Part shown: positions 3,389 through 28,423 of the stretch, piece after piece
How positions within the stretch are numbered: the first letter of the stretch is position 1
Layout: every line of letters starts with the position of its first letter
Source of the DNA: Thermoplasmatales archaeon SW_10_69_26
Lineage (GTDB): Archaea; Thermoplasmatota; SW-10-69-26
Direction of reading: 5' to 3'
Length of the DNA: 64,000 nucleotides
Assembly (NCBI GenBank): GCA_003009755.1
Contig: PXUB01000043.1
Location: forward strand, 16,646-80,645
Made by a program: the position numbers and the translations under genes
The notes under the pieces: model-generated
Seen by the model: the letters and a program-made list of their open reading frames with translations, nothing else
The model's database searches: none
What the model was told of the DNA's origin: nothing

Positions 3389-3517
3389 CCCGCGTTCACT
3401 GGGGTGGGGGCGCAGGCTTTTTCCTCCCGAGCCGCATCCCGCCTCGCGGGCCCGACCTCGACGTCACCGGCCACCGCTGGCGGCCGGGTCGCCCCCACGG
3501 GGCAAGAGGGGAGTGGG

Positions 3518-10780: not shown

Positions 10781-12238
10781 GTGATGACCTGGGACGGCCC
10801 CCTCGATCGCGTCGACGAGTACACGTACGAGATCCCCGCCTCGTACAAGAAGGAGATGCGCGTCCCCGGGCGGGTGTACGCCAGCGAGGGGATGCTCGAC
10901 CAGATCCTCGAGGACAACGCGATGGAGCAGGTCGCCAACGTCGCGACGCTGCCCGGCATCGTGGACGCCTCGATGGCGATGCCCGACATCCACTGGGGCT
11001 ACGGCTTCCCCATCGGCGGGGTCGCTGCCTTCGACGTCGAGGAGGGCATCATCAGCCCCGGCGGCGTCGGCTACGACATCAACTGCGGCGTCCGCCTCGT
11101 CCGCACCGGCCTCACCGCCGACGAGGTCGAACCCAAGATCGACGAGCTCATCGACACGCTGTTCGCGTACTGCCCCTCCGGCGTCGGCGAGGACTCCCAG
11201 GTCTCGTTCTCCAAGAGCGAACTCGAGGACATCCTCACCCACGGCGTCCCCCACCTCGTCGAGCAAGGCTACGGCTGGGAGGACGACCCGGCGCACATCG
11301 AGCACGACGGCGCCCACCCCGACGCTGCGCACGAGTACGCCTCCAAGAAGGCCAAGGAGCGCGGCCGCACCCAGATCGGCACGCTGGGCGCCGGCAACCA
11401 CTTCCTCGAGATCCAGCAGGTCGGCGACATCGTCCGCTCCGAGGAAGCCGAGGCCTTCGGCTTCACCGAGCCCGGCCAGATCGTGTTGATGATCCACTCC
11501 GGCTCGCGCGGCTTCGGCCACCAGGTCTGCACCGACTACCTCAAGCGCATGGAGCGCTCGCGCGAGGGCATGGCAGACGAGCTCGTCGACAAGCAGCTCG
11601 CCTGCGCCCCCTTCACCAGCGACGTCGGCCAACACTACTACGGCGCGATGTGCGCGGCGATCAACTACGCGTTCGCCAACCGCCAGATGCTGACCCACCA
11701 GGCCCGGCAAGCCTTCGGCGACGTCTTCGGCGAAGGCCCCGACCGGCTCGGCATGGACATCGTCTACGACGTCGCCCACAACATCGCCAAGCGCGAAACC
11801 CACCAGGTCGACGGCGGAGAGCGCGACGTGCTCGTCCACCGCAAGGGCGCCACGCGCGCGTACCCGTCCGGCCACGTCGACGTCTCCGGGGACTACCGCG
11901 ACGTCGGCCAGCCGGTGATCATCCCCGGCTCGATGGGCACCTGCTCGTGGGTGCTCGCCGGCGAGCACGGCTCGATGAAGCGCTCGTTCGGCTCCACCTG
12001 CCACGGCGCCGGCCGCAAGATGTCCCGCACCGAGGCCAAGAACACCTGGCGAGGCCGGACCCTCGTCGAGGACCTCGGCGACCGCGGCATCAAGGTCAAG
12101 CCTGCCAGCATGCGCGTCGCCGCCGAGGAGGCCCCCGGCGCCTACAAGGACGTCTCCGGCGTCGTCGACACCTGCGAGGGCCTGGGCATCTCGAAGAAGG
12201 TCACCAAGCTCGACCCCGTCGGCGTCATCAAGGGCTGA
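10781..12238 (+). CDS. rtcB: RtcB tRNA-splicing/RNA ligase
   Basis: 'MPDIHWGYGFPIGGV', 'GYDINCGVR', 'GTLGAGNHFLE', 'HSGSRG', 'HRKGAT', 'STCHGAGR', 'EEAPGAYK'. Confidence 0.97.
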   Translation: MMTWDGPLDRVDEYTYEIPASYKKEMRVPGRVYASEGMLDQILEDNAMEQVANVATLPGIVDASMAMPDIHWGYGFPIGGVAAFDVEEGIISPGGVGYDINCGVRLVRTGLTADEVEPKIDELIDTLFAYCPSGVGEDSQVSFSKSELEDILTHGVPHLVEQGYGWEDDPAHIEHDGAHPDAAHEYASKKAKERGRTQIGTLGAGNHFLEIQQVGDIVRSEEAEAFGFTEPGQIVLMIHSGSRGFGHQVCTDYLKRMERSREGMADELVDKQLACAPFTSDVGQHYYGAMCAAINYAFANRQMLTHQARQAFGDVFGEGPDRLGMDIVYDVAHNIAKRETHQVDGGERDVLVHRKGATRAYPSGHVDVSGDYRDVGQPVIIPGSMGTCSWVLAGEHGSMKRSFGSTCHGAGRKMSRTEAKNTWRGRTLVEDLGDRGIKVKPASMRVAAEEAPGAYKDVSGVVDTCEGLGISKKVTKLDPVGVIKG

Positions 12239-12294
12239 AGATTTTCTTTTTCTAGGGGCCTTGGCGCCTCTCGACCGGGGAAAAGAAGATCTTC
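12237..12294. repeat. Palindromic terminator-like element after rtcB
   Basis: GAAGATTTTCTTTTT...GAAAAGAAGATCTTC inverted arms around core GGGGCCTTGGCGCCTCTCGA; related copy at 25480. Confidence 0.6.
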
Positions 12295-12587
12295 GCCGTA
12301 AAGGAAAACCCCGGTCGAGAGCGATGCAGGCCCCATCGGCGTTGGTCTTTGACGCGGTTGGATCTTCGCGCAGGACTATCGTCACCTGACGGGCTGACCG
12401 TGCTCGAAGGTCTCGACGCCTGACCATCTCTCGGGAAAAGAGGCGTTCCGGCATGGCCGAGCAACGGGCCCGCCGATCCGTCGTCGGGCCAACGATGCTC
12501 GCGATCGCCGCGCGCCGTGTGAGGCCATACCTCGGACGTGGCAGAAGAACGAAAAGAGTGCAAGGGCGGACCACGGTGGGGCATACC

Positions 12588-13289
12588 ATGAGAGATGCGC
12601 TGATCGTCGTCTCGGAAGAGGGGTACTGGGGCGAAGAGCTGCTGGAGACGCTCGAAGGTCTCGACGACGCGGGCTTCGACGTCGAGATCGCCACGCCCAG
12701 CGGTCGCTACCCGCTGGTCGACCCCCGCAGCGCCGACCCGAACGAGGTCGGGGCCCTGATGGCCGAGCGCGTCGAGGAGCTGGAGGACGACCCCCGGCTC
12801 GAGGATCCCACACCGCTGCACGAGACCAGCGCCGACGACGTCGACGCCGTCGTCTTCCCCGGCGGTCACGGCACCGTCTGGGACGTCAACTAGGACGCCG
12901 ACGCCCGCCGCCTGCTACGCGAGGCCGTCGAAGGGCCCGCCCGGGCGCTCGTCGTCTGCCACGCCGTCGGCCTCGTCGCCTTCACCCGGATGAGGGACGG
13001 GTCCCTGCTAGCCGAGGGTCGCGAGGTCACCGGCTTCCCGAACGCCTGGGAGGACGAGATCGTCGACGAGAACGAGTGCATGCCCGACGGCACCAAGCTG
13101 CCCTACCGCATCGAGGACGAGATCAAGGCCGCCGACGGCAAGTGGGACGCCCAGATCAGCGAGGACACGAGCGTCAAGGTCGACGGCGACCTCGTCACCT
13201 CCCGCGGCCCGGCCAGCAGCGAGGAGGCGATCAACACGCTGCTCGACGAGATGGGTATCGAACGCGGAAGCGGCGAGGACCACGAGTGA
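12588..13289 (+). pseudogene. DJ-1/PfpI (type 1 glutamine amidotransferase-like) gene with in-frame TAG
   Basis: 'GYWGEE', 'FPGGHGTVWDVN*DADARRLL..VVCHAVG..VTGFPN..DGDLVTSRGP' in one frame; TAG at 12891-12893 lies upstream of the catalytic Cys-His. Confidence 0.85.
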
Positions 13290-13366
13290 CCTCGTCGGAA
13301 CCCGTCCGGTGACGATCGTCCTGTGCGGAGGCGGCGGATCCGCGGGGCCGGGAGCGATCGACGACG

Positions 13367-13795
13367 CTATCGTTCCGCCGGGTCGTCGAGGTCCAAGCCC
13401 TCCTCCCGCAACAGCTCGCGGACCCGCAGCCCCAGGTCGTCGCGGGCCCGGCGGAACGCCGCCAACTGCCCGCCCTCTGGATTGTCGATCTCCCACTGCT
13501 CCGGCGAGAGACCCTCGAAGATCGGATCGTCGACGAGACCGGGTCCGATGGCCACGACGGCGTCGGCGGCCTCCAGCTGGGCCCGCTGCACGGGGGCGGG
13601 CGCGATCCCGGTTGTGTCGATCCCGACCTCCCGAAGCGCCGTCAACGCACCCGGCAGGATCCGCCCATCGGGGTTGGTGCCCGCGCTGGCAGCCGCGACC
13701 TCGGGCGAGACCCCCTCCGCGATCGCCGCCGCCATCGGGCTCAACGCGTTGCACCGCTGGCACACGAACGCCAGCTCGACCCCCGACTCCGGCAT
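13367..13795 (-). CDS. LMW phosphotyrosine phosphatase/ArsC-like protein with degenerate P-loop
   Basis: 'FVCQRCNALSPMAAA', 'SAGTNP', 'LREVGID', 'WEIDNP..FRRARD'; the canonical C-x5-R Arg is absent. Confidence 0.7.
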   Translation of the reverse strand: MPESGVELAFVCQRCNALSPMAAAIAEGVSPEVAAASAGTNPDGRILPGALTALREVGIDTTGIAPAPVQRAQLEAADAVVAIGPGLVDDPIFEGLSPEQWEIDNPEGGQLAAFRRARDDLGLRVRELLREEGLDLDDPAER

Positions 13796-13889
13796 GAGAC
13801 CATCAACGACCGCCGACGGCAAGAGCGTTCCGAACCCCTCGGCGCGAGATGGCAGGCTTTTTCAGTCCTGTCGTCGCTCCACTTTCCGC

Positions 13890-14171
13890 ATGGGGGAGCA
13901 GGTTTCTTTCGCCTCGACGGGGGTCCTCGCCCTCGTCGCCGCGGTCGTTCTCGTCCCGATCGCCATCGTGCAGGTCCTCGGAGCTGGGCTCACGGAAGGC
14001 CTGCTCGTCGCGCTCGTCGTGGTCCCCATCCTCCTGGCGGCCCTCTGGGTGTACGTCGACGCTCGTCGGCGAGCCGACGACCACGCCTGGCTGTGGACGA
14101 TTGTCACGCTGGCGTTGCCGCTCGTCGGCCTGATCGTCTACCTGGGCGTCCGGGCGATCGACACCCGCTAG
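13890..14171 (+). CDS. Small membrane protein (PLDc N-terminal-like)
   Basis: Three hydrophobic segments; 'LWVYVDARRR..AWLW..LPLVGLIVYL'. Confidence 0.7.
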   Translation: MGEQVSFASTGVLALVAAVVLVPIAIVQVLGAGLTEGLLVALVVVPILLAALWVYVDARRRADDHAWLWTIVTLALPLVGLIVYLGVRAIDTR

Positions 14172-14479
14172 ACTATCGGTTTTGTTTTGCTTACGCCCCC
14201 GCGCCGGTCTCGGGAGACCGGGTACGGTCTCCCGAGAGGACGAGCTCGGAGGGCTCGTGCGAGGGAGAGTGGCAAGGTCGCGGAGCCCGAGGACGGGAAC
14301 CCTCGAGGGTTGTCGACGGACACTGCCCGAAACAGCGATCCGGGCGAATCCAGCGATCGGTCACCGGCCGATCGGTGGAGAATACGGATCTCCGATTCGT
14401 GTGAACCGTCGTCTCGGCTTCGCGTTTTCACCGCCTGAGGCCGAGCGAGAGCTTACCCCAAGCACAGCCGGCAGTCTAG
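14168..14479. mobile_element. MITE-like non-autonomous element, CTAG-flanked, ~22-bp imperfect TIRs
   Basis: Left CTAGACTATCGGTTTTGTTTTG vs right (reverse complement) CTAGACTGCCGGCTGTGCTTGG; second copy of the right ~143 bp at 63794; internal hairpins; no transposase. Confidence 0.75.
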
Positions 14480-14538
14480 TCCTCGGCCGGCTCGGCCACG
14501 CCAAGGGGCTCAAGTAGGGGCGGACGGCTGGCTACCTC

Positions 14539-15183
14539 GTGTCCGCCCGGAAGCCTCCCTCCTCGCTCGGCGACCTCGCCATCTCGATCGAGCAGCGCGA
14601 AGACGGACTCCGCATCCTCGAGGACGAGGTCTCGATCGCCGTCGACTTCGACGGTGTCCTCTTCGAGCAATCTCGCCACGTGCGCGATCTCTTCCAGGAG
14701 GTCCACGGGATCGATCCCGGCCCGGTCGACGAGTGGCCCTGCGAGCTCACCGAGCACCCGCCGATCAAGGACGAGGGCCTGACCAAGGAGGACACCTGGG
14801 AGGTCTTCCACGCCGTCCACAACGATATCGAGCGGCACCGCGACGACCCGCTCGACCCCGACACGACGACGGTGCTGGCCGAGCTCCGAGCTGCGGGTCA
14901 CGAGGTCGAGATCGTCACCGCTCGCGATCCAGTCAGCCGCGAGCCGACCCGCTTCTTCCTCGAACGCAACGAGATCCCCCACGACCGACTCGTCATGGGG
15001 GACAACGCGAAGACCGGCTGGGACGTGCTCGTCGACGACCTCCCCCCGCACGTCGAGCGCGTCGCCGCCGACGGCTCGCTGGGCCTCCTGCACGACCAAC
15101 CGTACAACCGGGCCTACGAGACCGACGGCAACCCTCGCCGGGTCGCCTCCTTCGAGGAGCTTGGGGCCCTGTTCGGCCACTGA
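14539..15183 (+). CDS. HAD-superfamily 5'(3')-deoxyribonucleotidase-like protein
   Basis: Motif I 'IAVDFDGVL', 'IVTAR', 'K..WDVLVDD', 'QPYNR'; start uncertain. Confidence 0.8.
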   Translation: MSARKPPSSLGDLAISIEQREDGLRILEDEVSIAVDFDGVLFEQSRHVRDLFQEVHGIDPGPVDEWPCELTEHPPIKDEGLTKEDTWEVFHAVHNDIERHRDDPLDPDTTTVLAELRAAGHEVEIVTARDPVSREPTRFFLERNEIPHDRLVMGDNAKTGWDVLVDDLPPHVERVAADGSLGLLHDQPYNRAYETDGNPRRVASFEELGALFGH

Positions 15184-15281
15184 TCCTCCCGGCTGTGGCC
15201 ACCGCTTCCCGGCCCGCTCCACCGGAACCGCACGACGTAAGTGCCTACCGGGTCGGGGCTCGCCACGGGTAAGGGCACCGA

Positions 15282-15296
15282 CGGAAGTGACTTATG
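15282..15296 (+). promoter_or_regulatory. BRE/TATA-like promoter of the ncRNA candidate
   Basis: CGGAAGtgacTTATG; TTAT at 15292, ~27 nt upstream of the predicted RNA 5' end, the spacing seen for leaderless genes in this window. Confidence 0.55.
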
Positions 15297-15318
15297 CGAG
15301 TAGGCTCCATATATGGTT

Positions 15319-16043
15319 GTCCGCGTCGTGTAGGACGCGTGGACGGTCCGACCTCTCGCGTTGGTTGGTCCCCGCGGCGGGTTCGCCCGCCGGAGAGCGC
15401 GCTCGCGAGGGTGCGCGATGGGGCCAGGCGGGATCGGCTCACAGCCGATACCGTCGGACGGTGGAGCCCCGGTTCGCCGGGCGTGCCGCTGGCCACCCGG
15501 ACACATCCGTGTCCGCGGGCTACCCGTCAGGGTCCGGGCGTCGCAGGCGCCCTCAAGCCCGCACGCGAAGAACGGCGTGTCGATCGAGGCGTGCGCTCCC
15601 GCGCGCGTCGAGAGAGCACGTGCGGAGGGCCGTGAAGCAAGGCCCCGGTTCGCCGGGGCAAGGAGGTGTGCCGAAACGGCGAACCTCTCGAGCTGACCGG
15701 CCGGTCTTCGGCGTGCGAACCGGGAAGGGCTCGCGCCCGTTCCGGGTGCCCGCCTCTTGGGTGGGCGAGGCGTGGTGAGCTTCGCGCTGGCCACGCAACA
15801 AGGGCCGCAAGGCCCGCGGGCCGACCGGAGATCGGTCGTTCCGTGGCACGCACCCGCATCTGCCTGACACCGAGCGATCGGTGCTCCTGCGGGTCGACCG
15901 TGCAGCCGCCCGGGTCTGTCCCGCTTCGCGGGAAGGGGCCCGAAGGCAGCGGTCCCGTGGCCGCCTTCGATGGTCGCGGAGACGTTCGGAGAGGAGTCCG
16001 AGCGGGTCAAGCCCGCTCCCGCCACGCGTCCGCGCGGTGCGGC
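15319..16043 (+). ncRNA. Large (~725 nt) highly structured non-coding RNA of unassigned class
   Basis: 5' end 15321-15342 pairs with 3' end 16022-16042 (21 bp, 4 G.U, one A bulge); GUUCGC loops at 15382, 15473, 15649; GNRA loops at 15405, 15807, 15874; followed by TTTT at 16044; no credible ORF. Confidence 0.78.
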
Positions 16044-16054
16044 TTTTCCTCCCC

Positions 16055-16145
16055 ACCTCTGCTCCCTCAGGGACTCCCGCCGCGAGGGCCTTCGGCTCGC
16101 CCGGTGGGAGGCCCTCGCTCGGTCCGTCCCTTCGGTCGCAGAGGT
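16055..16145. repeat. Nested ~90-nt hairpin (palindromic element or terminator)
   Basis: ACCTCTGC/GCAGAGGT, AGGGAC/GTCCCT and GCGAGGGCCTTC/GGAGGCCCTCGC nested inverted repeats. Confidence 0.55.
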
Positions 16146-16799
16146 TCGTCGGCCTCGGCGAAGGGGGATGGGGGGTGTCGGTCTGCATCGAGGTACCGCA
16201 AGGGCGGGGTTCTGTAGCTGTCTCAGCCAGACGGAGTCTATTTGATCTTCAAGGCCTCTACGGCTATATCCGGCCCCTTCATCGCTTCAGCCGTCACGAT
16301 CGCTTCGAGCGACAAAAGTCCGTGGTGGAGGGCCTTGTTGTCGCTAGTTCCTCTCCCAACTGAGACACGTTTAGAACCTCGCCCCAGGGGTACCTCTGCT
16401 TCGAGCTCCTTGCCAGCGGCGAACCTGACGCCGGGCCCTTCGGCCGGCGCCTGAAGGGGCGCTTGCCTCGGTCCGCCCCCTCGGTCGTCGATGTTCGTCG
16501 CAGCGCTATCTCGCCTGACGGGTTCCGGCGTGGCGTCGCTCTCGACGATCGAGGACCCTTAGCCGTAGTGGGTCCCGGCCGGCAGGGTCACCTGGACCGA
16601 GTTCGCGGTGTCTTGACGGTTGCTCGTCTCCGATGCGACCTGATGCCCGAAACGTATTTGTATCACATATCGACCGCTGTCTCGTAGACGATGATTGCTG
16701 CGGGGAGACCCGCGGTGATCTTCTTTCGCCGACCGTCATCAACCAGCTCAGATCATCGCTCGCGCGAGCGTTAGCCTGATCTTCCTGCGCCCCGAGGCC

Positions 16800-18095
16800 C
16801 TAGCGGCCGGCGACGCGCGGACCCTCGGCTTGCGCGTCGTCGAGCACCTCGGCGATCTCGGCCTCGGCGTGGGCCGGCGTTCCCCCAGTCACGCGAGCCT
16901 CGACGCGGGTCCCGATGGGGAGCTGTTCGGGCAACACCACCGGATCGTAGGCGCCGGTCCGGGCCTGCGAGGTCCCCTCGACCACGTGCTCGACGACGGT
17001 GGCCTCCACCGTCTGACCCGCCAGGCGGCTGCGGTGGGCCCTCTGCAGGCGGTCGCGGACCTCGCTCAGTTCGCGCGATCGATCCTTCACGAGCCCGCCG
17101 TCCAGCTGGTCGAGCTCGGCGGCCGGCGTGCCGGGCCGCGGGCTGAACCTCGTGACGTTCACGTGACCGGGCCAGGTCCCTTCGAGCAGATCCACGGTGG
17201 CTCGATGGTCGGCCTCGGTCTCGGTCGGGTACCCCACGATCACGTCGGTCGCGATCGTGACCTCGCCGAGCACCTCGCGCGCCCGCTCGCACACGTGCTC
17301 GAAGTCCTCGACCGAGTGCTCGCGGTCCATCGCGTCCAGCACGTCGTCCGAGCCGGACTGCACCGGGACGTGCAGGAAGTTGTACACGTTGGGGTGGTCC
17401 ATCGCCTCGAGCAGGTCGTCGAGGAACGGGATGCCGAGGAACGGATTCAGCATGCCGATCCGGATGCGGGCCCGGTCGGGCACCTCGCGCACGGCCTCGA
17501 CGAGATCGGCCAGGTTGTGGCCGCGGTCCTGCCCGTAGGCGCCGGTGTCCATGCTCGTCAGCCGGATCTCGGTGGCGCCCCGGTCGACGGCGTCCTGGAC
17601 CGCGTCCTGGATCGACTCGATCGGGTAGGAGCGCAGGCCGGGCCGGGCGAGCTTCGTGATGCAGAACGTGCAGTTGCCCAGACATCCGTCGTTGATGACG
17701 ATCGTGGCGATGCCGTCCTCCAGCGTGCGCGGCAGGCCCGCCTTGTCGACGGGCGCGGGCGTGAACCGCCCCTCCTCGAGCAGCGGAACGAGCTGGTCGA
17801 GGTTCGAGGGCGGCAGCACGAGCGCGTGCGGGGCGATCTCGTGCACCTTGCCGGGTTGGGCGCTGGCCATGCAGCCGGACACGACGAGCGTGTCCACCTG
17901 CTCGTCCAAGGCTTGGATGCGTTCGACCATGCGGCGCTGGGTCTTGTCCACGACGGTGCAGGTGACGAGCACGGCTGCGTCGGCCCGAGCCGGCTCCTCG
18001 ACGAGCTCGTGACCGGCCCGACGGGCCAGAGCCTCCATCGTGGAGCCCTCGGCCTGCGTCGTCGCGCAGCCGTACACCTCGACGTGGACGCGCAC
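16800..18095 (-). CDS. mtaB: tRNA t6A37 methylthiotransferase (MiaB-like, archaeal MtaB/CDKAL1 type)
   Basis: UPF0004 'YGC..TCTV..SGCM', radical SAM 'GCLGNCTFC', 'HVPVQSGSD', 'DVIVGYPTET', TRAM domain. Confidence 0.9.
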   Translation of the reverse strand: MRVHVEVYGCATTQAEGSTMEALARRAGHELVEEPARADAAVLVTCTVVDKTQRRMVERIQALDEQVDTLVVSGCMASAQPGKVHEIAPHALVLPPSNLDQLVPLLEEGRFTPAPVDKAGLPRTLEDGIATIVINDGCLGNCTFCITKLARPGLRSYPIESIQDAVQDAVDRGATEIRLTSMDTGAYGQDRGHNLADLVEAVREVPDRARIRIGMLNPFLGIPFLDDLLEAMDHPNVYNFLHVPVQSGSDDVLDAMDREHSVEDFEHVCERAREVLGEVTIATDVIVGYPTETEADHRATVDLLEGTWPGHVNVTRFSPRPGTPAAELDQLDGGLVKDRSRELSEVRDRLQRAHRSRLAGQTVEATVVEHVVEGTSQARTGAYDPVVLPEQLPIGTRVEARVTGGTPAHAEAEIAEVLDDAQAEGPRVAGR

Positions 18096-18279
18096 GCCTC
18101 CTCCAGCCCGGTCGCCGGCTTGAACCCTTGGCCTTGCAACGTCGGTTGGGCGAACCGTTTAACCGTCCTCCAGCGTATCCCGCGAGTGGGAGGACCACCG
18201 TGGGAGGAAACCTGCCCCGACCCGAGGCCGCCCGACGATCGATGCAGCAAGCCATCCACCGCCCGCCGGAGGTTCGGCG

Positions 18280-20541
18280 ATGAAGACCCGCAGCCTCGTC
18301 GTCGGGTTGGCCCTCGTGACGGCCGGGTTCACGCTGGCCGCCAACGGTGTGCAGGCCGCCGATGGCACCGGCTGCCTGACCCCGCTCGACATCAGCTTCG
18401 TGCTCGACCGGTCCGGCAGCATGTCCGGCGACCCGATCGAGACGGCCCGCGATGGCGCAAGCGAGCTCGCTCGCAGCCTGTCCGACGTCGAGCAGTCCGG
18501 GCTCGTCTCCTACTCGTCCTCCGCCACGCTCGACCAACCGCTGGGCTTCGACCACGAGGCCACCGCGACGGCGATCGAGAGCCTCACCGCCGGCGGCGGC
18601 ACGGCCACGGGCGACGCCATCGACCTCGCCCACGACGACATCCAGACCAACGCCCGCGCTGGCGTCGACGACGTGATGATCCTCCTGACGGACGGCATCA
18701 CGAACGAGGGCAGCGACCCGGTCGTCCAAGCCCAGGCGGCCAAGGACGACGGCGTCGAGATCTACGCCATCGGGCTCGGCTCGGGCATCAACACCCAGGA
18801 CCTGCAGCAGATCGCCTCCGACCCGACCGAGGAGCACTTCTTCCACCCCACGTCCACGGAGGAGCTGTTGGAGGTCTTCCAGACGTTGACCCAACGCCTG
18901 GGCCAAGCTGCGACGGGCGAGGCTCACGCCCTCCGCGGCCAGGGCTCGGCTGACAGCGGCGACCGCGTCATCGTGGACCCGGTCTCCCAGGCGAAAAGCC
19001 CGCCCGACGAGACGCGCTCGAGGGCCCAGACCGTCGTCCCCGCTGGCCCCTACACCGTCGAGATGAACCTCGTCGAGGACGCCAGCCAGGCCGATACGAG
19101 CAACGAGCGGACCAGCGCGACCTCGACGGCGCGCATCTCGTCCCTCGAGATCCGCAACGAGACGACCACGCTCGTCGCCGCCGACACGCTGCAAGCCCGT
19201 GCCCACAGCCAAGCGACGCCGGCCGGCGCCCAGACCAGCGACGACGGCACACGGCTGGCCGGGCTCGAGATTCTCGGCGAGACCGTCGAGGCGACCGTCC
19301 CCCCGAACACCGTCGTCCCCATCAGCGAGGACACCCAGATCGTCCTCAACGAGCAGATCACCGACGAGGCCGAGGACTACGCCTCCCTGCGCGTCAACCT
19401 CGTCCACCTCACCACCGAGCTGCCGGACGGCGGCTCGCTGGAGCTGGTCGTCTCCTCGGCCTACGCGGCCGCCGAGTGCGATTCGCCCCGCGCGGTCACC
19501 AGCCTCGCCGATGCCGCGGACCCGCCGATCCGCTACGAGGGCCCCGACGAGGAGACCACCTACGAGGAGGCCACCGTCAACCGCGGCGGGTGCGCCAGCA
19601 ACACCGTCGCCGTCAGCGGCAGCGGCTGCGCCGCCGGCGCGGCCGCCCTCTCGGCCTTCGGCCCCGCCGACTCCCCGCTGGGCGTGGCCGTCAGCGGCAC
19701 GGACGAGAGCCAGGCCAACACGGGCGCCGCCGTCTCCGGCTTCGGTCCCTCGAACGCCGGCGTCGGCGTCGCGATCAGCGGCACCGACTCGGCCACGGCG
19801 CCGGTCGGGGCTGCCGTCTCGGGCACCGGGCCTGCCGAGGGAGCCGCCGCCGCGTCCGGCACCGGTGACGCCGTCGGCGTGGCTGCCGTGTCCGGCACCG
19901 GCGACACGACCGGGCTCGTCCTGTTCAGCCTCACCGGCGAGTGCAACGAGATGGCCTGCTACGACGTGCAGCCGACCAACGACGCCCACGCCTGGACGCT
20001 GGCCCTCGCGGGCGACGGTTCCGCGCGGACCCACGTCGGCGCCTCCGTCGCCGGCACCGGCACCGCCTCCAACGAGATCGCGGGCGCGGCCGTCTCCGGC
20101 ACCGGGCCCGCCACGTCTCCGATCGGGGCCGCCGTCTCCGGGACGGGACCGGCCGAGGCCGGGCTCGGGGCTGCCGCCAGCGGGACGAACGACGCCTCCG
20201 GCGTCGCCGCCGTCTCCGGCACCGGGGACACCGAGGGCCTGGTCCTGTTCAGCGCCACCGGCGACTGCAGCGACCGGGACTGCTACGAGATCAACCCGAC
20301 CGGCGAGGCCGACGCCTGGACGATGGCCGTCTCCGCCACCGACCCCTCGACGGCCGCCGTCGGCGTCGCCGTGACCGGCACCGACGACGCCCGTACCGAC
20401 ACCGGGGTCGCCGCCTCCGGCACCGATAGCGCCTACGCCGGCACCGGCGTCGGTGTCAGCGGCTGCACCGGCGTCCAGTTCGACCTGATCTTGATCGGCG
20501 GATCCCAGCCCTCGCCGGTGCCCGTGTGCGCCATCCCGTGA
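18280..20541 (+). CDS. Secreted VWA-domain protein with Gly/Ala/Ser/Thr-rich repeat tail
   Basis: Signal peptide, MIDAS 'DRSGSM', 'GGGTATGDAI', 'LLTDG'; many (A/V)AVSGTG-like repeats in the C-terminal third. Confidence 0.85.
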   Translation: MKTRSLVVGLALVTAGFTLAANGVQAADGTGCLTPLDISFVLDRSGSMSGDPIETARDGASELARSLSDVEQSGLVSYSSSATLDQPLGFDHEATATAIESLTAGGGTATGDAIDLAHDDIQTNARAGVDDVMILLTDGITNEGSDPVVQAQAAKDDGVEIYAIGLGSGINTQDLQQIASDPTEEHFFHPTSTEELLEVFQTLTQRLGQAATGEAHALRGQGSADSGDRVIVDPVSQAKSPPDETRSRAQTVVPAGPYTVEMNLVEDASQADTSNERTSATSTARISSLEIRNETTTLVAADTLQARAHSQATPAGAQTSDDGTRLAGLEILGETVEATVPPNTVVPISEDTQIVLNEQITDEAEDYASLRVNLVHLTTELPDGGSLELVVSSAYAAAECDSPRAVTSLADAADPPIRYEGPDEETTYEEATVNRGGCASNTVAVSGSGCAAGAAALSAFGPADSPLGVAVSGTDESQANTGAAVSGFGPSNAGVGVAISGTDSATAPVGAAVSGTGPAEGAAAASGTGDAVGVAAVSGTGDTTGLVLFSLTGECNEMACYDVQPTNDAHAWTLALAGDGSARTHVGASVAGTGTASNEIAGAAVSGTGPATSPIGAAVSGTGPAEAGLGAAASGTNDASGVAAVSGTGDTEGLVLFSATGDCSDRDCYEINPTGEADAWTMAVSATDPSTAAVGVAVTGTDDARTDTGVAASGTDSAYAGTGVGVSGCTGVQFDLILIGGSQPSPVPVCAIP

Positions 20542-20588
20542 TGTCGGACCCGCAACCTTGATGCCGGCGGGCCCGCCAACGGCCTCCC

Positions 20589-21635
20589 GTGGACGCCCAG
20601 GCCTGGCTCGAGGACAACGCCCGGTTCCCCGTCCCCGACGGCGAGTTCGCCTGCCGGGAAGGCTGCGGCTTCTGCTGCACCTACCCGCCCAAGGTCGACG
20701 ACGATCGCCTGGCCGCGATCGAGGCGGCCCGCGGCGACACGCCGACCGGGACCGACGCCCACGGCAACACGCGCCTCGCACTGCAAGGCGGATGCGGGGG
20801 CTGCGTCCTCCTCCAGGATCGCCGATGCCAAGCCCACGAGAACCGCCCCGACCACTGCCGGTTCTTCCCCTTCCACATCTACTTCGGTCGCGAGGTGGTC
20901 GTCGTCGCCGACCGCGTGTGCCCGGGCATCGCTCCCGACGACGCCGACCGAGGCCCCCACGAGCCCGCCTCGCGGTACCCCGCCTGGGAGCAACCGCGCG
21001 AGATCGAGGCCGCCGGCAGGGACGTGCTCACCGCCGCCGACCCCGAGGAGCTCGAGGGCCGAGCCCGCCAGGCTCGCGAAGCCCACGAGGCCGTCGAGGC
21101 GCAGGCCCGCTGGGCCGACGACTGGCGCGAGCCGGCCCACGCGGTCGAGGACCACCTCGAGACCGCCGAGGCCACCCCCCGCGCCTGGCAGCTGGCGACC
21201 GAGGCCTTCCAGGCCCGCGAGCTGGCTCACCTGCCCACGACCGTGATCCCGGGCAAGCAGGGCTTCGAGTGGCGGGCTTGGCGCATCGCCGAGGAGCGGC
21301 TGCACCGCCTACGTTTCGACGAGGCCGGTCGCACGAAGCTCGTCGGCACCGCGCCTGTGCCCGAGGCGCCCGAGGACGACCTCGCGCCGGTCGTGGCCGA
21401 GACGCTGGCGGCGCTGGCCGAGCTGGAACCGTTCGTCGGCGCCTGCATGCACCACGTCGAGCAGGGCCGCTCGATGGACGAGGCGGTCCAACGGCGACTG
21501 GCCGACGTCGCCGCCGGGCTCAGCCTGCACGCCGACCTGCTCCGGGCCGAAGATCTGCCCGTCACGACGGCCTGGCTGCGCTCCGTCTACGAGCCGGAGT
21601 TCTTCACGCTCGAGACCCTGGGCGAGTGGCTCTAG
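20589..21635 (+). CDS. YkgJ-family (CxxxCxxCC) cysteine-cluster protein
   Basis: 'FACREGCGFCC', 'GCVLLQDRRCQAHENRPDHCRFFPF', 'CPG'. Confidence 0.85.
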   Translation: MDAQAWLEDNARFPVPDGEFACREGCGFCCTYPPKVDDDRLAAIEAARGDTPTGTDAHGNTRLALQGGCGGCVLLQDRRCQAHENRPDHCRFFPFHIYFGREVVVVADRVCPGIAPDDADRGPHEPASRYPAWEQPREIEAAGRDVLTAADPEELEGRARQAREAHEAVEAQARWADDWREPAHAVEDHLETAEATPRAWQLATEAFQARELAHLPTTVIPGKQGFEWRAWRIAEERLHRLRFDEAGRTKLVGTAPVPEAPEDDLAPVVAETLAALAELEPFVGACMHHVEQGRSMDEAVQRRLADVAAGLSLHADLLRAEDLPVTTAWLRSVYEPEFFTLETLGEWL

Positions 21636-22066
21636 GCTCGGGCGGCCTGCAGCTCGGCGCGCACGGACTGCGCGAGGCCCGCCTCGTCGACCTCGACCTC
21701 GCCTTGCGCTTGGAACAGCGCGTGGATCGGACCGTGGCGGTCGCTGTCCCATCGTGGCACGATGTGCAGGTGGGCGTGGGGAACCTCCTGGCCGGCGGCC
21801 GAGCCCTCGTTCCACGCCATCGTGGCCCCGTCGGCGCCCACCGCCTCCTGCACGGCGCCGGCGATCTCGGGCACCGGCCGGAAGTAGCGGCCCGCCAGAT
21901 CGGGGTCCAGATCCGAGACGCGCTCGACGTGCTCGCGCGGGACGACGAGCGTGTGGCCCTCCGCGAGCGGGTTCGCGTCGAGGAAGGCGACCACGTCCTC
22001 GTCCTCGTAGACCCGCTCGGCCGGGATCTCGCCCTCGATGATCTTGCAGAAGATGCACTCCGACAT
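21632..22066 (-). CDS. HIT family hydrolase
   Basis: 'CIFCKII', 'GHTLVVP', 'GQEVPHAHLHIVPR'. Confidence 0.93.
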   Translation of the reverse strand: MSECIFCKIIEGEIPAERVYEDEDVVAFLDANPLAEGHTLVVPREHVERVSDLDPDLAGRYFRPVPEIAGAVQEAVGADGATMAWNEGSAAGQEVPHAHLHIVPRWDSDRHGPIHALFQAQGEVEVDEAGLAQSVRAELQAARA

Positions 22067-22125
22067 GGTCGCGTGGCCAACAACTGCCCCCCAACCTATA
22101 AGCCGTCGGTGGACCACCGTCGACC

Positions 22126-23007
22126 GTGGCCCGAGGCTGGCTTCCCGCGGCCTCCACCCTGGCGGTGCGAGGTCTGCTCGTCCTGGCCGGCGCCCTCGTC
22201 GTCGCCACCGGCGCCTACGCCGTCTTCCACCTGGCGCCCGCCAGCCTCGACCCCGAACCGGGCCAGACGCAGGCGGTCACCGAACGCGTCGCGTACTGGA
22301 CCCCCGAGGACGGCCACCAGCAGATCCTGCGCCCCCGCACCGATCACGTCCGCCAGGACGCGGATGGGCTCGAGCTCGTCCGTCGGTTGCAGGGGACCCA
22401 TTCCCCACGCGGCGGCCAGTTCCAGGTCGATCTCGGCGACCGCTGGCGGCTGGCCGAGGAACCGGCCGCTTACGCCGCGTTCCCGCCCACACCGGTCTGG
22501 GAGGAACCGCCGGAGACCGTGCACGTCGGCGTCCCCTGGCAGACCGAGGACGGCAAGCGGATCGGCGGCTTCGACGACTTCCAGCGGCTGCACGAGACCG
22601 AACGCGACGGGCTCGCCCTCGTCAAGTACGAGGCTCGCGAACCCAGCCAGTTCCTCGTCGACGGCGACCAGGTCTGGTTCCGCACCGCCGTGCGGACGGC
22701 CCTCGTCGAGCCCGTCACCGGGACCGTCGTCGACTACCACGACGAGGAGACCCTGTGGACGGCGCCGCTCGAGGGGCCCGACATCGTGCACGAGATCCAG
22801 CCTCCGCGCGAGAACCGTGAGAAGGTCTGGGAGGCGACCGTGGAGCCGACGCCCGCCTCCCAGCAGCAGCGCGTCGAGCAGGCCGAGCAAACGCGCGAGG
22901 ACCACCTCGAGCACGTGCTCGCGCTCGCGGTGCCCGCGCTCCTGGCAGGCGAGCTGTTGATGGGTGCAGGCATCACCGGCCGGCCCAAGCGTTGGCTGAG
23001 CCGGTGA
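22126..23007 (+). CDS. Membrane-anchored hypothetical protein (DUF3068/PorA-like)
   Basis: N- and C-terminal TM segments; 'VEPVTGTVVD' motif; start uncertain. Confidence 0.55.
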   Translation: MARGWLPAASTLAVRGLLVLAGALVVATGAYAVFHLAPASLDPEPGQTQAVTERVAYWTPEDGHQQILRPRTDHVRQDADGLELVRRLQGTHSPRGGQFQVDLGDRWRLAEEPAAYAAFPPTPVWEEPPETVHVGVPWQTEDGKRIGGFDDFQRLHETERDGLALVKYEAREPSQFLVDGDQVWFRTAVRTALVEPVTGTVVDYHDEETLWTAPLEGPDIVHEIQPPRENREKVWEATVEPTPASQQQRVEQAEQTREDHLEHVLALAVPALLAGELLMGAGITGRPKRWLSR

Positions 23008-23174
23008 GGACACCGACGATCGTCCCCCGCCACCAGGTCGGCCCTTGGCCGAGATAGGCTCTATGACGGAGAGGAAGCCTTGCACCGAGTTGTCCCTCAT
23101 CCGCTTTCTATGGGGGCCGGTGAGCCAGGGTTCGGGGAGAAACCATGCGCGATGGAACAACCACGGCAACGAAG

Positions 23175-24278
23175 ATGCAAGCCCTGGTGGTCGGGCTGAT
23201 CACAATGTTCGGGCTGGCCCCGATCGCCAGTGCGGGCGCGAGCACCGCCGACGACGCCGCCGTCTCGCAGGGCGCGGACGAACCGGCCGAGGTAGGCGCC
23301 CAGCCGATGGACGGCGACGGCGAGGAACGCGAGAACGTGACGATCCGCGTGATGAAGCACGTCTGCACGCCGTCCGTGCAGAACATCGACGACTTCGAGA
23401 GCGTCGACCCGAACGGCGACGGTCAGACGACGTTCGCCGACAAGGTCCTGGCCTGTCCGACCGTCGTGCAGCCGGGCGACGAGTACGTCGACGGCGCCGT
23501 CTCGTTCGACGACAAGCACGAGATGCAGTTCGAGATCGAGGACGAGAACGGTGACGTGCACACGATCGAGGACGCGACCTTCCAGCAGCAGCAGGTCTGT
23601 GAGAGCGAGGACGCCAGCGAGGACGAGGACGCCGCCACCGCCGCCCTCGGCGCCGACGTGAGCGGTGACGGCGACCAAGACGACTGCCTGGACACCTCGC
23701 TGTACGTCTACGAAGGCGTCGCCGACGGGGAGGTCACCGTGACCGAGACCCAGACCCCCGGCCTGACCGAGCCGGGCGCCCTGGAGTTCACGCCCCAGGC
23801 GCTGAACCCGAACAACGACGCCGACACGCTGCTCGAGGAGGAGAACGAGGTCTTCGCCGACGACAACATGGTCGAGCTGCGGACGACGGAGGACGACAAC
23901 GGGGCCATCACCCTGCACCTCTACAACTTCGCCGTCTGCCCGACCGTGACCGCCACCGCCAACGATGGCCCGACCAACCGCCTGTCGTGGAGCGCCGTCG
24001 ACGAGGCGGACAGCTACCACGTCTATCGGGCCACCGCGGACGGTGAGATGGAGCAGATCGCCACCGTCGACGGTAACACCACGACCTTCGACGACGGCGA
24101 CGTCGAGGAGGACGTGACGTACCGCTACCAGGTCACCGCGATGGTGGACGGCGAGGAGACCGAGGCCTGCAACACGGCCGAGGTCACCGCGATCCCGGTG
24201 TTCTCCAGCGGCGCCGCCGTCGCGTCCGCTGCCGTGCTCGGGATCGGCGTCTACGCGGCCACGCGCCGCACGAGCTGA
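23175..24278 (+). CDS. Secreted acidic protein with FN3 domain and C-terminal IPVF-TM-basic sorting signal
   Basis: Signal peptide; FN3 'LSWSAVDEADSYHVYR..TTFDD..TYRYQVTA'; ends 'AIPVFSSGAAVASAAVLGIGVYAATRRTS'. Confidence 0.8.
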   Translation: MQALVVGLITMFGLAPIASAGASTADDAAVSQGADEPAEVGAQPMDGDGEERENVTIRVMKHVCTPSVQNIDDFESVDPNGDGQTTFADKVLACPTVVQPGDEYVDGAVSFDDKHEMQFEIEDENGDVHTIEDATFQQQQVCESEDASEDEDAATAALGADVSGDGDQDDCLDTSLYVYEGVADGEVTVTETQTPGLTEPGALEFTPQALNPNNDADTLLEEENEVFADDNMVELRTTEDDNGAITLHLYNFAVCPTVTATANDGPTNRLSWSAVDEADSYHVYRATADGEMEQIATVDGNTTTFDDGDVEEDVTYRYQVTAMVDGEETEACNTAEVTAIPVFSSGAAVASAAVLGIGVYAATRRTS

Positions 24279-24367
24279 CCGGCGCCGCTCGGCCCGCCTA
24301 GGGGCCTCCGCACCGCTGCGGGGGCCTCCTTGCTTCTTCCTTTCTCCAGCCTCCCACGGCTGTCTCG

Positions 24368-24667
24368 CTATCGCAGCTGGAACCCCTCGTCACGCAAGAT
24401 GTCCGGGACCCGGTCCGTGTGATCGCCCTGGAGCTCGATCGTGCCGTCCTCGACCGTGCCTCCGGTCGCCAGTTGCTTCTTCAACCGCGAGGCGAGATCG
24501 TCGAGATCGATCACGTCTGTCGAGAAACCGTCCACGATCGTGACGGCTTTCCCGTACCGGCGGGACTCGGTCCGGACGTTCAACTGCTGAGCTTCCTTGT
24601 CGAGCTCCTCGTCGATGCCGAGCTCTTCGGGAAGGCCTGCGATGCTGGCAAGGTCGTCGTCTGCCAC
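24368..24667 (-). CDS. yciH: Translation initiation factor 1 (aIF1/SUI1/YciH)
   Basis: 'RRYGKAVTIVDG', 'LASRLKKQLATGGTV', 'IELQGDH'. Confidence 0.9.
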   Translation of the reverse strand: MADDDLASIAGLPEELGIDEELDKEAQQLNVRTESRRYGKAVTIVDGFSTDVIDLDDLASRLKKQLATGGTVEDGTIELQGDHTDRVPDILRDEGFQLR

Positions 24668-25060
24668 GTGAGGTTGTGGCGTACCCCTCACACATGTAGC
24701 TTTCGCCGGGCCCCCGAGCCGGACCTCACGACCCGGCGACGACCTGGACCCCGATCCCGTTGCCGGAACGCCAGGTGGTAGAGCCCGATCGTCGGCCGGG
24801 GGCGCTCGGGAGCCTGCGGGGCGTGCTCAAGCACCAGCTCGAAACCGCCGCCAGCTGGCGCGAGCACGAGCTCGTCGCGTCCCGCGACCGGCTGCAGACC
24901 GAACACGTCCTCGCGGAAGCCCCGCTGGGCGGCCCGATCGGCGACCCGATAGCGGACGGCGCGCAGCGGCGATCGCTCGGCCACGCAGCGTGAAGGCCCT
25001 GGGCCGGGTTCAGCCCTCGCCCGAGCAAGGCCTTTTGCCGGCGGCCGCGTTGCCCGGCTC

Positions 25061-25480
25061 GTGAGCTCCTTCCGCATCGTCGAACACACCGCCGACGTCG
25101 GCCTCGAGGCCGAAGCCGACACGCTCGAGGGGGCTGTCGTCGCGCTCGTCGAGGGCTTCGGCGAGCTCGTCTGTCCCGAGGGTGAGGTCCAGGCGAGGGA
25201 GGAGCGGACCGTGTCGGTCGAGGCGCCCGACCTCGACGACCTCGTCGTCGACTTGCTCGACGAGCTCAACTACGTCCACCAGGTCGACCGCTTCGTGCCC
25301 GCCGGCGGGACGGCGAGGATCGAGAAGACGGCCGAGGGCTACCGCGTCCGGCTGCAGGCGACCGGCGAGGGCTACGACCGCGAGGCCCACGGCCACCTCA
25401 TGGAGATCAAGGCGACCACCTACCACGGCCTCGAGGTCGAGGACGAGCCCGGGCGGATCGCTGTGCTGTTCGACGTGTAG
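25061..25480 (+). CDS. Archease (RtcB cofactor)
   Basis: 'EHTADVG', 'EIKATTYHGL', C-terminal 'VLFDV'. Confidence 0.93.
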   Translation: MSSFRIVEHTADVGLEAEADTLEGAVVALVEGFGELVCPEGEVQAREERTVSVEAPDLDDLVVDLLDELNYVHQVDRFVPAGGTARIEKTAEGYRVRLQATGEGYDREAHGHLMEIKATTYHGLEVEDEPGRIAVLFDV

Positions 25481-25539
25481 AGCATTTTTCTTTCAACGGG
25501 GGCTTGGCGCCTCCCGAGGGGGGACAAAGAAAAATCCTC
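25480..25539. repeat. Palindromic terminator-like element after archease
   Basis: GAGCATTTTTCTTT...AAAGAAAAATCCTC arms around core GGGGGCTTGGCGCCTCCCGA; related to 12237-12294. Confidence 0.6.
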
Positions 25540-25997
25540 GGCAACGATCTGGCCGAAGCGGCGCTTCGGCCGCTCCGGAGACCGTGACATCAACGTCGGT
25601 CGCCGGAAGAAACCCACTCAGGAGCGATGCAGCCCCCAACGGCATTGATCTTGGGCGCTGTTGGACCTTCGCGCAGGGTCATCGCTGCCTGACCCGTCCC
25701 TGTGCGGTCACGATGGTGCCCCGCCGCTGGTCGTCCTCCCTGGGCTCCTCTTCGTTCCCGCTCTTCGGTGTGTTCCTTCCCCACCGCGTCCGTGGAGCTG
25801 ATCGGCCGTCACGCAATACCTTGGGCTGCGAGGTCGAGGGTGCGAAGAAAGTGAGCGGGACGTCCACGCCGGGTCGCCCGTAGCAATCACACTCTACGAG
25901 ACAGCGGCCGGTAGGTCATACAAAAGAGTAACGGGTAGGGGGGGCGAGGTGAGCGCCGGCCCGCCCGCGCGTCGGTACCCACCGACCTAACCTTGCC

Positions 25998-26438
25998 TCA
26001 AGACAGGGGCTCGCTTTGCAGCGTAGCCTCGACCTCGATCTCGAGCTCGTCGAGCGCTCCGGACACCGGGCACTGATCCTCGGCGTCCTCGGCGAAGGTT
26101 CGGAACTCGTCGGCGTCGATGCCGGGCACGCTGCCCCTCGTCGACAGGACCACACGCGTGATCTCGGGGCCCTCGTCCATGTCCAACTCGACCGTTGCGT
26201 CCGTCTCGATCGAGTTCGGCTGGTGGCCCTCCCTCGTCAATAGCTGGGTGAGAGCCATCGAGTAGCAGGCGGCGTGGGCGGCGCCGATCAGCTCCTCCGG
26301 GTTCGTGTTGTTCCCCGTCTCGAACCGGCTGGCCGTGTCGTAGGGCGCATCGAGCACGCCGGACTCCGTGGACACGTTGCCTCCCCCAGTCTCGAGATCG
26401 CCCGTCCATCGAGCCGTACCACGTCGCTTGATCGTCAT
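25998..26438 (-). CDS. osmC: OsmC family peroxiredoxin
   Basis: 'ARWTGDL..G', 'TNPEELIGAAHAACYSMAL', 'CPVS'. Confidence 0.92.
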   Translation of the reverse strand: MTIKRRGTARWTGDLETGGGNVSTESGVLDAPYDTASRFETGNNTNPEELIGAAHAACYSMALTQLLTREGHQPNSIETDATVELDMDEGPEITRVVLSTRGSVPGIDADEFRTFAEDAEDQCPVSGALDELEIEVEATLQSEPLS

Positions 26439-26544
26439 GGCGAGACGACGAGACCGTTTCGCGATGGATGAATCCTCTACGAGGGATGTTTCGCCGGCCA
26501 AACGATCGCTGAGCCGGGACGGTGGACGTTGGGCTTGGCACGTC

Positions 26545-26979
26545 TCAGCCGGGGGTCGGCGTCTGCAGGAACGCCTCGACCTCGATCGCTGGGGACAGGA
26601 TGCCGGACACCAAGCTCTCCTCGCTCGCCCGGTGGGCGAGCCTCACGAAGCTCTCCTCGTCGATCGCGTCGGCTCGGCCCTACGTGACGAGCCGGACCGA
26701 CGTAATCTCGCCTCCGTCGGCGTCGAGCTCGACGTCGGCCTCGGTCCGCACGTTGTCCGGCTCGTAGCCCTCTCGCTGGAGCACATCGGTCAACGCCATC
26801 GAGCAGCAGACGGTGTGGGCGGCCGCGATCAGCTCCTCGGGGTTCCTGTGCTCCCCGTCGGCGAACCGGCTGGCCGCGTCGAAGGCTGCCTGGAGGACGC
26901 CGCTGTCCGTCGACAGGGTGCCCTCGCCGGTGTCGAGGTCGCCTTGCCACCGGGCCGTCCCGCGCCGTTTGCGTGTCAC
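26545..26979 (-). pseudogene. Second OsmC paralog with in-frame TAG and lost resolving Cys
   Basis: 'NPEELIAAAHTVCCSMAL..RLVT*GRADAIDEESF..ESLVSGIL..IEVEAFLQ' aligns with the neighbouring osmC; TAG at 26680-26682; CPVS replaced by SLVS. Confidence 0.85.
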
Positions 26980-27087
26980 GGCGACGGCAGAGCTGGCCGC
27001 CTCGAGAGTCCTGCACGGTCGGCGCTTGGCGTGGCCAAGCGGTCGCTTGCAACGCCCGGTGAAGCTAGCCGACCGGCGACCGGGGGC

Positions 27088-28260: not shown

Positions 28261-28423
28261 GGGCGCACCTACGGCTCGACCAGACGGGGCTCTCTACTTG
28301 AAGGGCCGGTGGCGGAGCCCCTGCGAAGACACGCTTGGGCCCCCGGACGGGCGGCCTGCCCCGTCCCAACCCCGAGTTGGGCAAAACCTTTCTTCCACTG
28401 CTGCGTCGAGCCAAGCGGTCGGG

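Follow-up and report, generated by a model that had tools for sequence, protein, structure and literature searches.

The window analysed here is a 64,000-nucleotide stretch of DNA from Thermoplasmatales archaeon SW_10_69_26, whose genome is an archaeal metagenome-assembled genome (MAG) of 2.8 Mb in 49 contigs, 95% complete. Its plus strand carries at 15319-16047 a candidate gene for a large structured non-coding RNA (ncRNA) of ~729 nt, whose ends are placed by inference and whose recognition rests on the stability of its fold, the lack of codon periodicity, full-length homologues in related genomes and contigs from RNA libraries covering 15352-15994. Upstream lies a HAD/NT5C-like gene (14539-15183, plus strand), and the RNA starts 136 nt 3' of it. 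The downstream neighbour, convergent with the RNA, is a radical-SAM methylthiotransferase gene with UPF0004, Radical_SAM and TRAM domains (16800-18095, minus strand). GC content by codon phase shows strong periodicity in both flanking genes and is flat from ~15200 to ~16750, confirming the ~1.6-kb gap without a credible open reading frame (ORF) that an earlier note on this DNA had remarked. Several frames hold long listed ORFs across the RNA locus, since DNA of 70% GC yields such ORFs as a by-product, and a Pfam search with the 303-aa minus-strand ORF at 15114-16025 gave no match. The whole 64-kb window has no Rfam match at gathering level, tRNA included.

The single-sequence minimum free energy (MFE) fold of 15319-16047 on the plus strand has an energy of -447 kcal/mol, compared with -399.3 +/- 6.7 kcal/mol for 20 dinucleotide shuffles. 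None of the shuffles (0/20) was as stable, and the comparison with shuffled sequence that the earlier note had proposed thus came out strongly negative (z = -7.08); the reverse complement gave z = -3.76. The two ends of the RNA are brought together by a closing helix, P1, which the earlier note had predicted as a 21-bp helix between 15321-15342 and 16022-16042 and which lies exactly there. As read from the sequence, its 5' strand (15321-15342) contributes P1a (15321-15331; 11 bp including four G.U pairs), a bulged A at 15332 and P1b (15333-15342; 10 Watson-Crick pairs), and its 3' strand is 16022-16042. Both segments are in the MFE fold, with pair probabilities of 0.98 and 1.00, and P1 is followed on its 3' side by C16043 and then TTTT at 16044-16047. 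The nine hairpins described in the earlier note are likewise all present where it had put them; their outermost pair is in the MFE fold in six of the nine and in the centroid in eight of the nine. The one outermost pair missing from the centroid is the A-U of hairpin 15433-15449, with a probability of 0.43. By eye, we saw no kink-turn, 11-nt receptor, C/D or H/ACA boxes or bulge-helix-bulge in the RNA.

Homologues of the RNA were found in four other genomes of the same family (f1), two in genus g2 (G001 and G004) and two in genus g4 (G003 and G005), the window genome being of genus g1. BLAST against 41 related genomes recovered both RNA ends in G001 and G004 and the 5' block in G003 and G005, and nhmmer gave full-length matches of 400-473 bits in all four. 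The homologue loci as extracted are ~605-890 nt long, the RNA itself is ~600-840 nt in the relatives, and pairwise identity among the five RNAs is 46-82%. The RNA is single-copy in its own genome and is carried by five of the six sampled species of the family. Comparison with tblastn gave weak similarity in every frame on both strands, the pattern that nucleotide conservation gives, and few indels are multiples of three: 1 of 12 between G005 and G003, 2 of 12 between G004 and G001, and, for the window RNA, 5 of 14 against G004, 4 of 14 against G001 and 4 of 20 against G005. The segment 15319-16047 is non-coding.

The five-sequence alignment (MAFFT) gave an RNAalifold consensus of 180 pairs, and 83.8% of the 864 cells on this consensus are paired, compared with 35.3-43.1% after a shift of the 3' partners by 1-3 columns. 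Both sides have changed in 61 of the 180 pairs (13-21 after the shift), and of 500 column shuffles not one attained any of the five covariation measures, with misalignment by MAFFT in the variable parts limiting the covariation counts. P1b, nearly invariant in sequence, is paired in 100% of cells over the five sequences, and both partners have changed in 3 of its 10 pairs. P1a and P1b are separated by an internal loop of 1-4 x 0-3 nt across the homologues, which in the window consists of one bulged A and in G004 and G001 measures 4 x 3 nt. Thus pairs are kept through compensatory changes, as expected of a structured ncRNA, in five sequences from which the structure itself was derived. The homologue comparison proposed earlier therefore gave compensatory changes and no coding signal.

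Conservation is concentrated in a few blocks of the plus strand. Directly inside P1 lies the invariant block ACGGWCCGACCUCU (15343-15356), conserved in all five RNAs, in which only position 5 (W) varies, being T in four and A in G001; together with a possible short hairpin (15344-15352/15360-15367) it spans 15343-15367. The central block (15530-15580; helices 12-14) has dense invariant columns and consists of two nested hairpins followed by CACG-YGAARRRCGR-CGUG with a conserved purine-rich loop. The best covariation is seen in a compound hairpin at 15849-15896 (helices 23 and 25), made of an outer stem, an internal loop CUGCCUGR/YNCCU, an inner stem and an invariant GCGA loop; the outer stem is paired in 100% and the inner in 97% of cells, with four double changes in each. 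It is followed by another conserved hairpin, helix 28 (15947-15979), in which 5 of 11 pairs have changed on both sides and 81.5% of cells are paired, and by the conserved strand ACGYYYGGAGAGGA (15982-15995), within which GGAGAGGA (15988-15995) is invariant in all five. The last hairpin, GAGCGGGU-CAA-GCCCGCUC (16000-16018), lies just inside P1 and is in the centroid with a pair probability of 0.63; its stem base GAGCG...CGCUC is conserved and its loop size varies. The invariant CCUCU at 15352-15356 can lie within the loop of the local hairpin or pair with AGAGG at 15990-15994. A three-sequence consensus prefers AGAGG, and the five-sequence consensus pairs GGAGAGG with 15484-15492 (helix 8, with two double changes at its end); covariation cannot choose the partner of CCUCU because both strands are invariant.

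Between these blocks the hairpins vary. The window RNA has ~110 nt that are absent from g2, g4 has insertions of its own, and in g4 P1 gains a further segment and the 5' end is ~30 nt longer. A fixed core with a free periphery is, as judged from the alignment, the pattern expected of a functional RNA.

Upstream of the RNA we find a BRE/TATA-like (B recognition element/TATA-like) promoter element at 15282-15298 on the plus strand, in which a purine-rich stretch is followed by ACTTATGC. The CGGAAG and TTAT that the earlier note had proposed as promoter elements lie within it, at 15282-15287 and 15292-15295. The same layout recurs upstream of all five homologues, where a purine-rich stretch of the GGAGAAA type precedes a TATA-like ACATATGC, CATTACGC or GATATGTC, a resemblance at the level of consensus. 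In the window TTAT lies 26-29 nt 5' of P1, and the distance is similar in both g2 genomes; in g4 the TATA-like element is ~50 nt 5' of the aligned P1, which fits, since the 5' end is longer there. At the other end, the T-run directly 3' of P1 (16044-16047, plus strand) is a candidate archaeal terminator: a T-run of at least three follows the helix in four of the five homologues, G004 being the exception, and transcription may end in this run.

The order HAD-like gene, RNA and convergent methylthiotransferase gene is common to the window, G001 and G004. The HAD-like gene and the RNA lie 136 nt apart in the window, ~630 nt apart in G001 and ~1.7 kb apart in G004; on the other side, the RNA of G001 ends 28 nt from the stop of the methylthiotransferase gene. 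Neither gene adjoins the RNA in G003 and G005; in G003 the methylthiotransferase gene is on contig C2 and the RNA on C202. Because the neighbours change in g4 and the promoter-like element is kept, the RNA appears to be a unit, or gene, of its own. The earlier note had also raised, as speculation, a link to the nearby rtcB; this gene is 3 kb upstream of the RNA in the window and on a different contig in all four other carriers, and the link does not hold.

To ask whether the locus is represented in RNA, we turned to public libraries. In eight RNA-library runs, which come from two studies and bear the label halite metagenome, we found 31-41% of the words sampled from 15150-16250. We compared the assembled Logan contigs of four of these runs, from both studies, with 14300-17500, and 10 of the 11 contig pieces fall inside 15352-15994. 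Among them are contigs of 599 nt (15352-15950) and 638 nt (15357-15994) that match the window over their entire length at 98-99% identity, with no loose ends. The presence in metatranscriptomes that the earlier note had proposed looking for was thus found, in the form of contigs. The flanking genes and spacer within 14300-17500 have no contigs, save a 35-nt partial piece at 17352-17386 that is loose at both ends. These empty flanks are a weak hint that the signal is not DNA contamination; the uncovered part proves nothing, and the boundaries of the RNA are unaffected by it.

We next compared the locus with known RNA families. A permissive scan of 15100-16800 with the 4227 models of Rfam 15 (E up to 10) gave five hits with E of 0.72-8.9, all below the cut-offs (PyrR209, bxd_2, chrB-a, Atu_C4 and snoZ178, 15-18 bits), and the RNaseP_arch, Archaea_SRP, OLE, ROOL, GOLLD, HEARO, raiA and intron models gave no match there. 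The four homologue loci (E up to 5) gave three unrelated hits with E of at least 0.29. The novelty that the earlier note had made dependent on Rfam is therefore borne out, as no family matches the window or the four homologues. The genome has its own RNase P RNA (RNaseP_arch, RF00373; 139.8 bits, contig C30, spanning 330 nt) and its own signal recognition particle (SRP) RNA (Archaea_SRP, RF01857; 190.2 bits, contig C25, spanning 315 nt), so the candidate is indeed longer than both, as had been said of it, and it shares nothing with them beyond 8-10-mers. Nor did we see in it the regions that we take to be conserved in RNase P RNA. A group II intron was considered and rejected, there being no model match, no coding ORF inside and a single copy; the hairpin at 16000-16018, with an unbulged stem of 8 bp and a loop whose length varies, is unlike group II domain V as we understand it. 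The likeness to OLE, ROOL and GOLLD that the earlier note had drawn stands for scale and fails for family relationship, with no model match. We found no archaeal counterpart in Rfam 15 or, at the level of abstracts, in the literature, whose supplementary motif lists could hold candidates.

The distribution of the RNA is narrow. The exact pattern ACGGWCCGACCUCU occurs in eight stretches of the representative genomes, four in the archaeal relatives and four in bacterial MAGs; we take the bacterial ones as chance, since nhmmer found no match there. A hairpin motif searched in metagenome contigs gave 28 stretches, none of which (0/28) was confirmed by nhmmer. We also built two covariance models, R1 for the 3' domain and R2 for the 5' domain. 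Over the 21 genomes of the class, R1 found family f1 only, besides one 28.7-bit match in G014 that we discounted as the main hairpin is missing, and R2 found the same five carriers. Over 151 genomes sampled from the phylum R1 found five, all of family f1. BLAST matches in G009 and G016 (27-41 nt, E about 1e-3) were confirmed by neither model. The prefilter of the covariance models scores only 17-150 candidates per genome, and weak relatives could therefore be missed. A two-motif scan of IMG/VR and blastn against 72,556 plasmid and 50,697 phage records gave no match. As far as these searches reach, the RNA is confined to one family.

Several observations bear on the methylthiotransferase gene and on the DNA around the RNA. 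A synteny-guided search found no RNA beside the methylthiotransferase gene in G007, G010 and G018. In G002 the DNA 3' of this gene is coding and nhmmer found no RNA there; the methylthiotransferase match itself (G002:C28:16808-17797) comes in two pieces (residues 1-139 and 263-420) ~100 nt apart, and judging by these pieces the radical-SAM core is apparently absent or divergent there. In the window, a spurious 1336-aa frame at 16771-20781 (minus strand), without a Pfam match and typical of 70% GC DNA, overlaps both the methylthiotransferase gene (16800-18095, in another frame) and a VWA-domain gene (18280-20541, plus strand). The gaps between the HAD-like gene and the RNA in G001 (L017 5688-6316) and G004 (L019 236-1907) hold no convincing ORF by a third-codon-position GC (GC3) filter. 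In G003 ~1.7 kb directly 3' of the RNA (L018 ~2700-4590) is absent from G005 and includes a patch of ~20-30% GC; this stretch may be an inserted element. Beyond it the downstream DNA of G005 and G003 shares 128 nt, with no conserved partner ORF.

In the window, the RNA is separated from the methylthiotransferase gene by a spacer of ~750 nt (16048-16799), which lies outside the RNA and is built of small repeat elements; G001 lacks it entirely, and there the RNA abuts the next gene. It contains an element of ~200 nt and lower GC (16190-16396) like a miniature inverted-repeat transposable element (MITE), with inverted arms of 37 nt (16190-16226 and 16360-16396) that are 78% complementary and three further copies of 93-97% identity elsewhere in the genome (contigs C35, C32 and C2). 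A second short repeat (16647-16716; ~55-110 nt) has at least six further matches across the genome at 76-90% identity, two of them elsewhere on the window's contig. Two pairs of direct repeats at 16076-16151 and 16424-16500, spaced 348-349 nt apart and 76-85% identical, bracket the MITE-like element; these may stem from duplication of GC-rich spacer that forms hairpins, or represent a further small element present twice.

Taken together, the best explanation overall is very probably that 15319-16047 on the plus strand encodes a large and highly structured ncRNA belonging to a family not described before, and we hold with high confidence that the RNA is real, independently expressed and of a new family. 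The earlier note had claimed a large structured RNA of Archaea, independently transcribed, not described before and distinct from both RNase P and SRP RNA; this held in every test that was run, the strand, ends and function of the RNA being placed by inference. We propose that its own archaeal promoter would drive transcription from a start near 15319 to an end in the T-run at 16044-16047, and that P1, which closes the RNA, would shield it from exonucleases. The core would be formed by ACGGWCCGACCUCU, the GAARRRCG loop, the CUGCCUGR/GCGA hairpin and GGAGAGGA, with peripheral hairpins that differ in length and number between genera. Pairing of the invariant CCUCU with AGAGG might draw the 5' and 3' domains together, and the invariant loops are putative binding or active sites. 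The RNA would then act in trans, as the core of a ribonucleoprotein (RNP) or as a ribozyme, in a housekeeping role specific to the lineage. By analogy, its anatomy is that of stable trans-acting RNAs such as RNase P or SRP RNA.

The host setting for this proposal would be a Thermoplasmata lineage with an acidic proteome, probably a halophile of the salt-in type. The eight window proteins that we checked (genes within 10781-28293) have a pI of 4.05-5.12 and 0-4% lysine; such acidic, lysine-poor proteins are those expected of a salt-in halophile and agree with the halite label of the RNA libraries. Granted that the RNA is an ncRNA of a new family, an RNP scaffold would be its likeliest role, because of the analogy with RNase P, SRP and OLE RNAs, a role to which we give slightly less than even weight. 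A ribozyme, on the same premise, seems rather unlikely, and a regulatory or sponge RNA is to be rated no higher than that.

Several points weigh against this interpretation. Family f1 includes one genome, G002 (89% complete), in which BLAST, both covariance models and nhmmer detected no copy. The comparison comprises only five sequences of one family, among them two close pairs (82% and 71% identity). Testing a structure on the alignment that produced it inflates the pairing figures, and the shuffle control takes no account of relatedness. On the minus strand the mirrored structure still pairs 79% of cells, compared with 84% on the plus strand, a margin too small for the wobble pairs to decide the strand. 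The candidate tertiary pairing of CCUCU with AGAGG competes with the local hairpin and with helix 8. As to the RNA libraries, presence there is not by itself proof of transcription and DNA contamination is not formally excluded; Logan contigs carry neither strand nor end nor level information, and both P1 strands (15321-15342 and 16022-16042) lie outside every contig from the four runs. The nine strain differences between the RNA contigs and the window give no extra support to the MFE fold, because four are unpaired, two keep a pair and three break one.

The alternative that survives best, which we still consider unlikely, is that P1 is a processing stem and the mature RNA is the 15352-15994 core, linear or circularised, as in archaeal rRNA precursors. 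It would account for the fact that no contig of the four RNA-library runs compared extends into P1 and that contig ends cluster at 15352-15368 and 15950-15994 in two studies, and the genome encodes an RtcB ligase. However, contig ends are unreliable, and at a depth of 5-13 the loss of the terminal 30-90 nt is expected. Furthermore, P1b is nearly invariant, the P1 loop does not by eye have the form of two 3-nt bulges four pairs apart, no back-splice joint occurs among the RNA-library contigs, and rtcB is unlinked to the RNA in the other carriers.

Much less probable is a very divergent member of a known family that Rfam missed, such as a second RNase P/MRP-like RNA, an SRP RNA or the remnant of a group I or II intron. 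A closing helix, a conserved core and a variable periphery are RNase P- or SRP-like, and covariance models can overlook extreme divergence. However, none of these models matches even at E up to 10 in the window and up to 5 in the homologues, canonical RNase P and SRP RNAs that share only 8-10-mers with the candidate are present elsewhere in the genome, and the RNA is a single copy between protein genes, with no reverse transcriptase or endonuclease ORF.

We find it hardly credible that the structure acts in cis on a neighbour, whether as a long 3' untranslated region (UTR) belonging to the HAD-like gene or by regulating the methylthiotransferase gene from an antisense or convergent position. 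Its position on the same strand 136 nt past the former, and 28 nt from the stop of the latter in G001, would suit such a role, but the HAD-like gene is ~1.7 kb off in G004, neither gene adjoins the RNA in G003 and G005, and the promoter-like element is conserved directly upstream in all five. As the linkage is not conserved, this explanation is largely refuted. Just as slight is the chance that the locus is a remnant or passenger of a mobile element or virus (a satellite, a MITE-like element or a selfish RNA of the intron kind, for example) and not a functional RNA of the cell. The position of the RNA differs between genera and repeats lie just downstream (16048-16799), but there is one copy per genome, neither the two-motif scan of IMG/VR nor blastn against the plasmid and phage records gave a match, synteny is kept between two genera, and the repeats do not extend into the RNA and are lacking from G001. 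That the locus codes for a protein (the 303-aa minus-strand ORF 15114-16025, for instance) or is a chance structure in GC-rich spacer can be dismissed, for although long ORFs occupy several frames, GC-rich DNA folds by chance and even the minus strand has z = -3.8, there is no codon periodicity and no Pfam match, indels are mostly not multiples of three, and conservation with compensatory changes excludes chance structure.

The reading of a new ncRNA family makes the locus worth work at the bench, given its covariation, its conserved core and its presence in RNA libraries. The RNA comes from an uncultured lineage that has an acidic proteome and is found with halite samples, and thus bears on how large RNAs fold and function at extreme salt; its short sequence allows in-vitro transcription, chemical probing and cryo-EM without culturing the host. 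To our knowledge, very few classes of large structured RNA (>400 nt) exist beyond rRNA, RNase P, tmRNA and self-splicing introns, and those that we know of, OLE, GOLLD, ROOL, HEARO and raiA, are all bacterial or phage-borne, several with unexpected architectures or partners. A bolder possibility, which we regard as doubtful, is that the candidate represents the first archaea-specific class of large ornate RNAs, a catalytic, self-assembling or RNP machine of ~600-840 nt in a family of halophilic Thermoplasmata. If true, this would mean a fold adapted to molar intracellular salt and an activity without counterpart among known ribozymes and RNPs.

Among known systems, the long end-to-end helix, in a genome that encodes RtcB, recalls rRNA-type processing stems and the circles made by splicing endonuclease and RtcB. 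The candidate differs from these in that P1 by eye lacks bulge-helix-bulge geometry, no contigs span a junction and rtcB is unlinked in the relatives. Archaeal RNase P RNA (RF00373) is closer in its anatomy, with its own gene, a terminal helix, few invariant strands, between which long-range pairing may build a core, and variable peripheral hairpins, and the candidate is likewise stable enough to be recovered in RNA libraries; in contrast, its length is double that of the 330-nt copy in this genome and it is confined to one family rather than being universal. Similarly, archaeal SRP (7S) RNA (RF01857) is a closed multi-helix or rod-like stable RNA of high GC with GNRA-type loops and a stand-alone, housekeeping-style gene, but the candidate has neither a model match nor sequence in common with it, and the genome has its own 315-nt copy.

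GOLLD and ROOL, which form RNA-only cages, are bacterial or phage-associated (10.1101/2024.12.08.627333). They resemble the candidate as very large ornate RNAs of unknown function that had no matches when discovered; the candidate differs in being chromosomal and single-copy, was not found in the viral collections searched and has no model match to them. OLE RNA, in turn, usually adjoins its partner gene oapA, whereas the candidate has no linked partner gene; OLE is moreover bacterial, no sequence or model match joins the two, and no kink-turn was seen by eye in the candidate. The summaries of PMC9723947 and PMC12054373 describe OLE as an RNA of ~600 nt with many helices and highly conserved stretches between them, well expressed in extremophiles as an RNP whose biochemical role is unclear. 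As far as these summaries go, the OLE RNA of extremophilic Bacillota and the candidate are alike in being large RNAs of many helices, with conserved stretches and an extremophile host.

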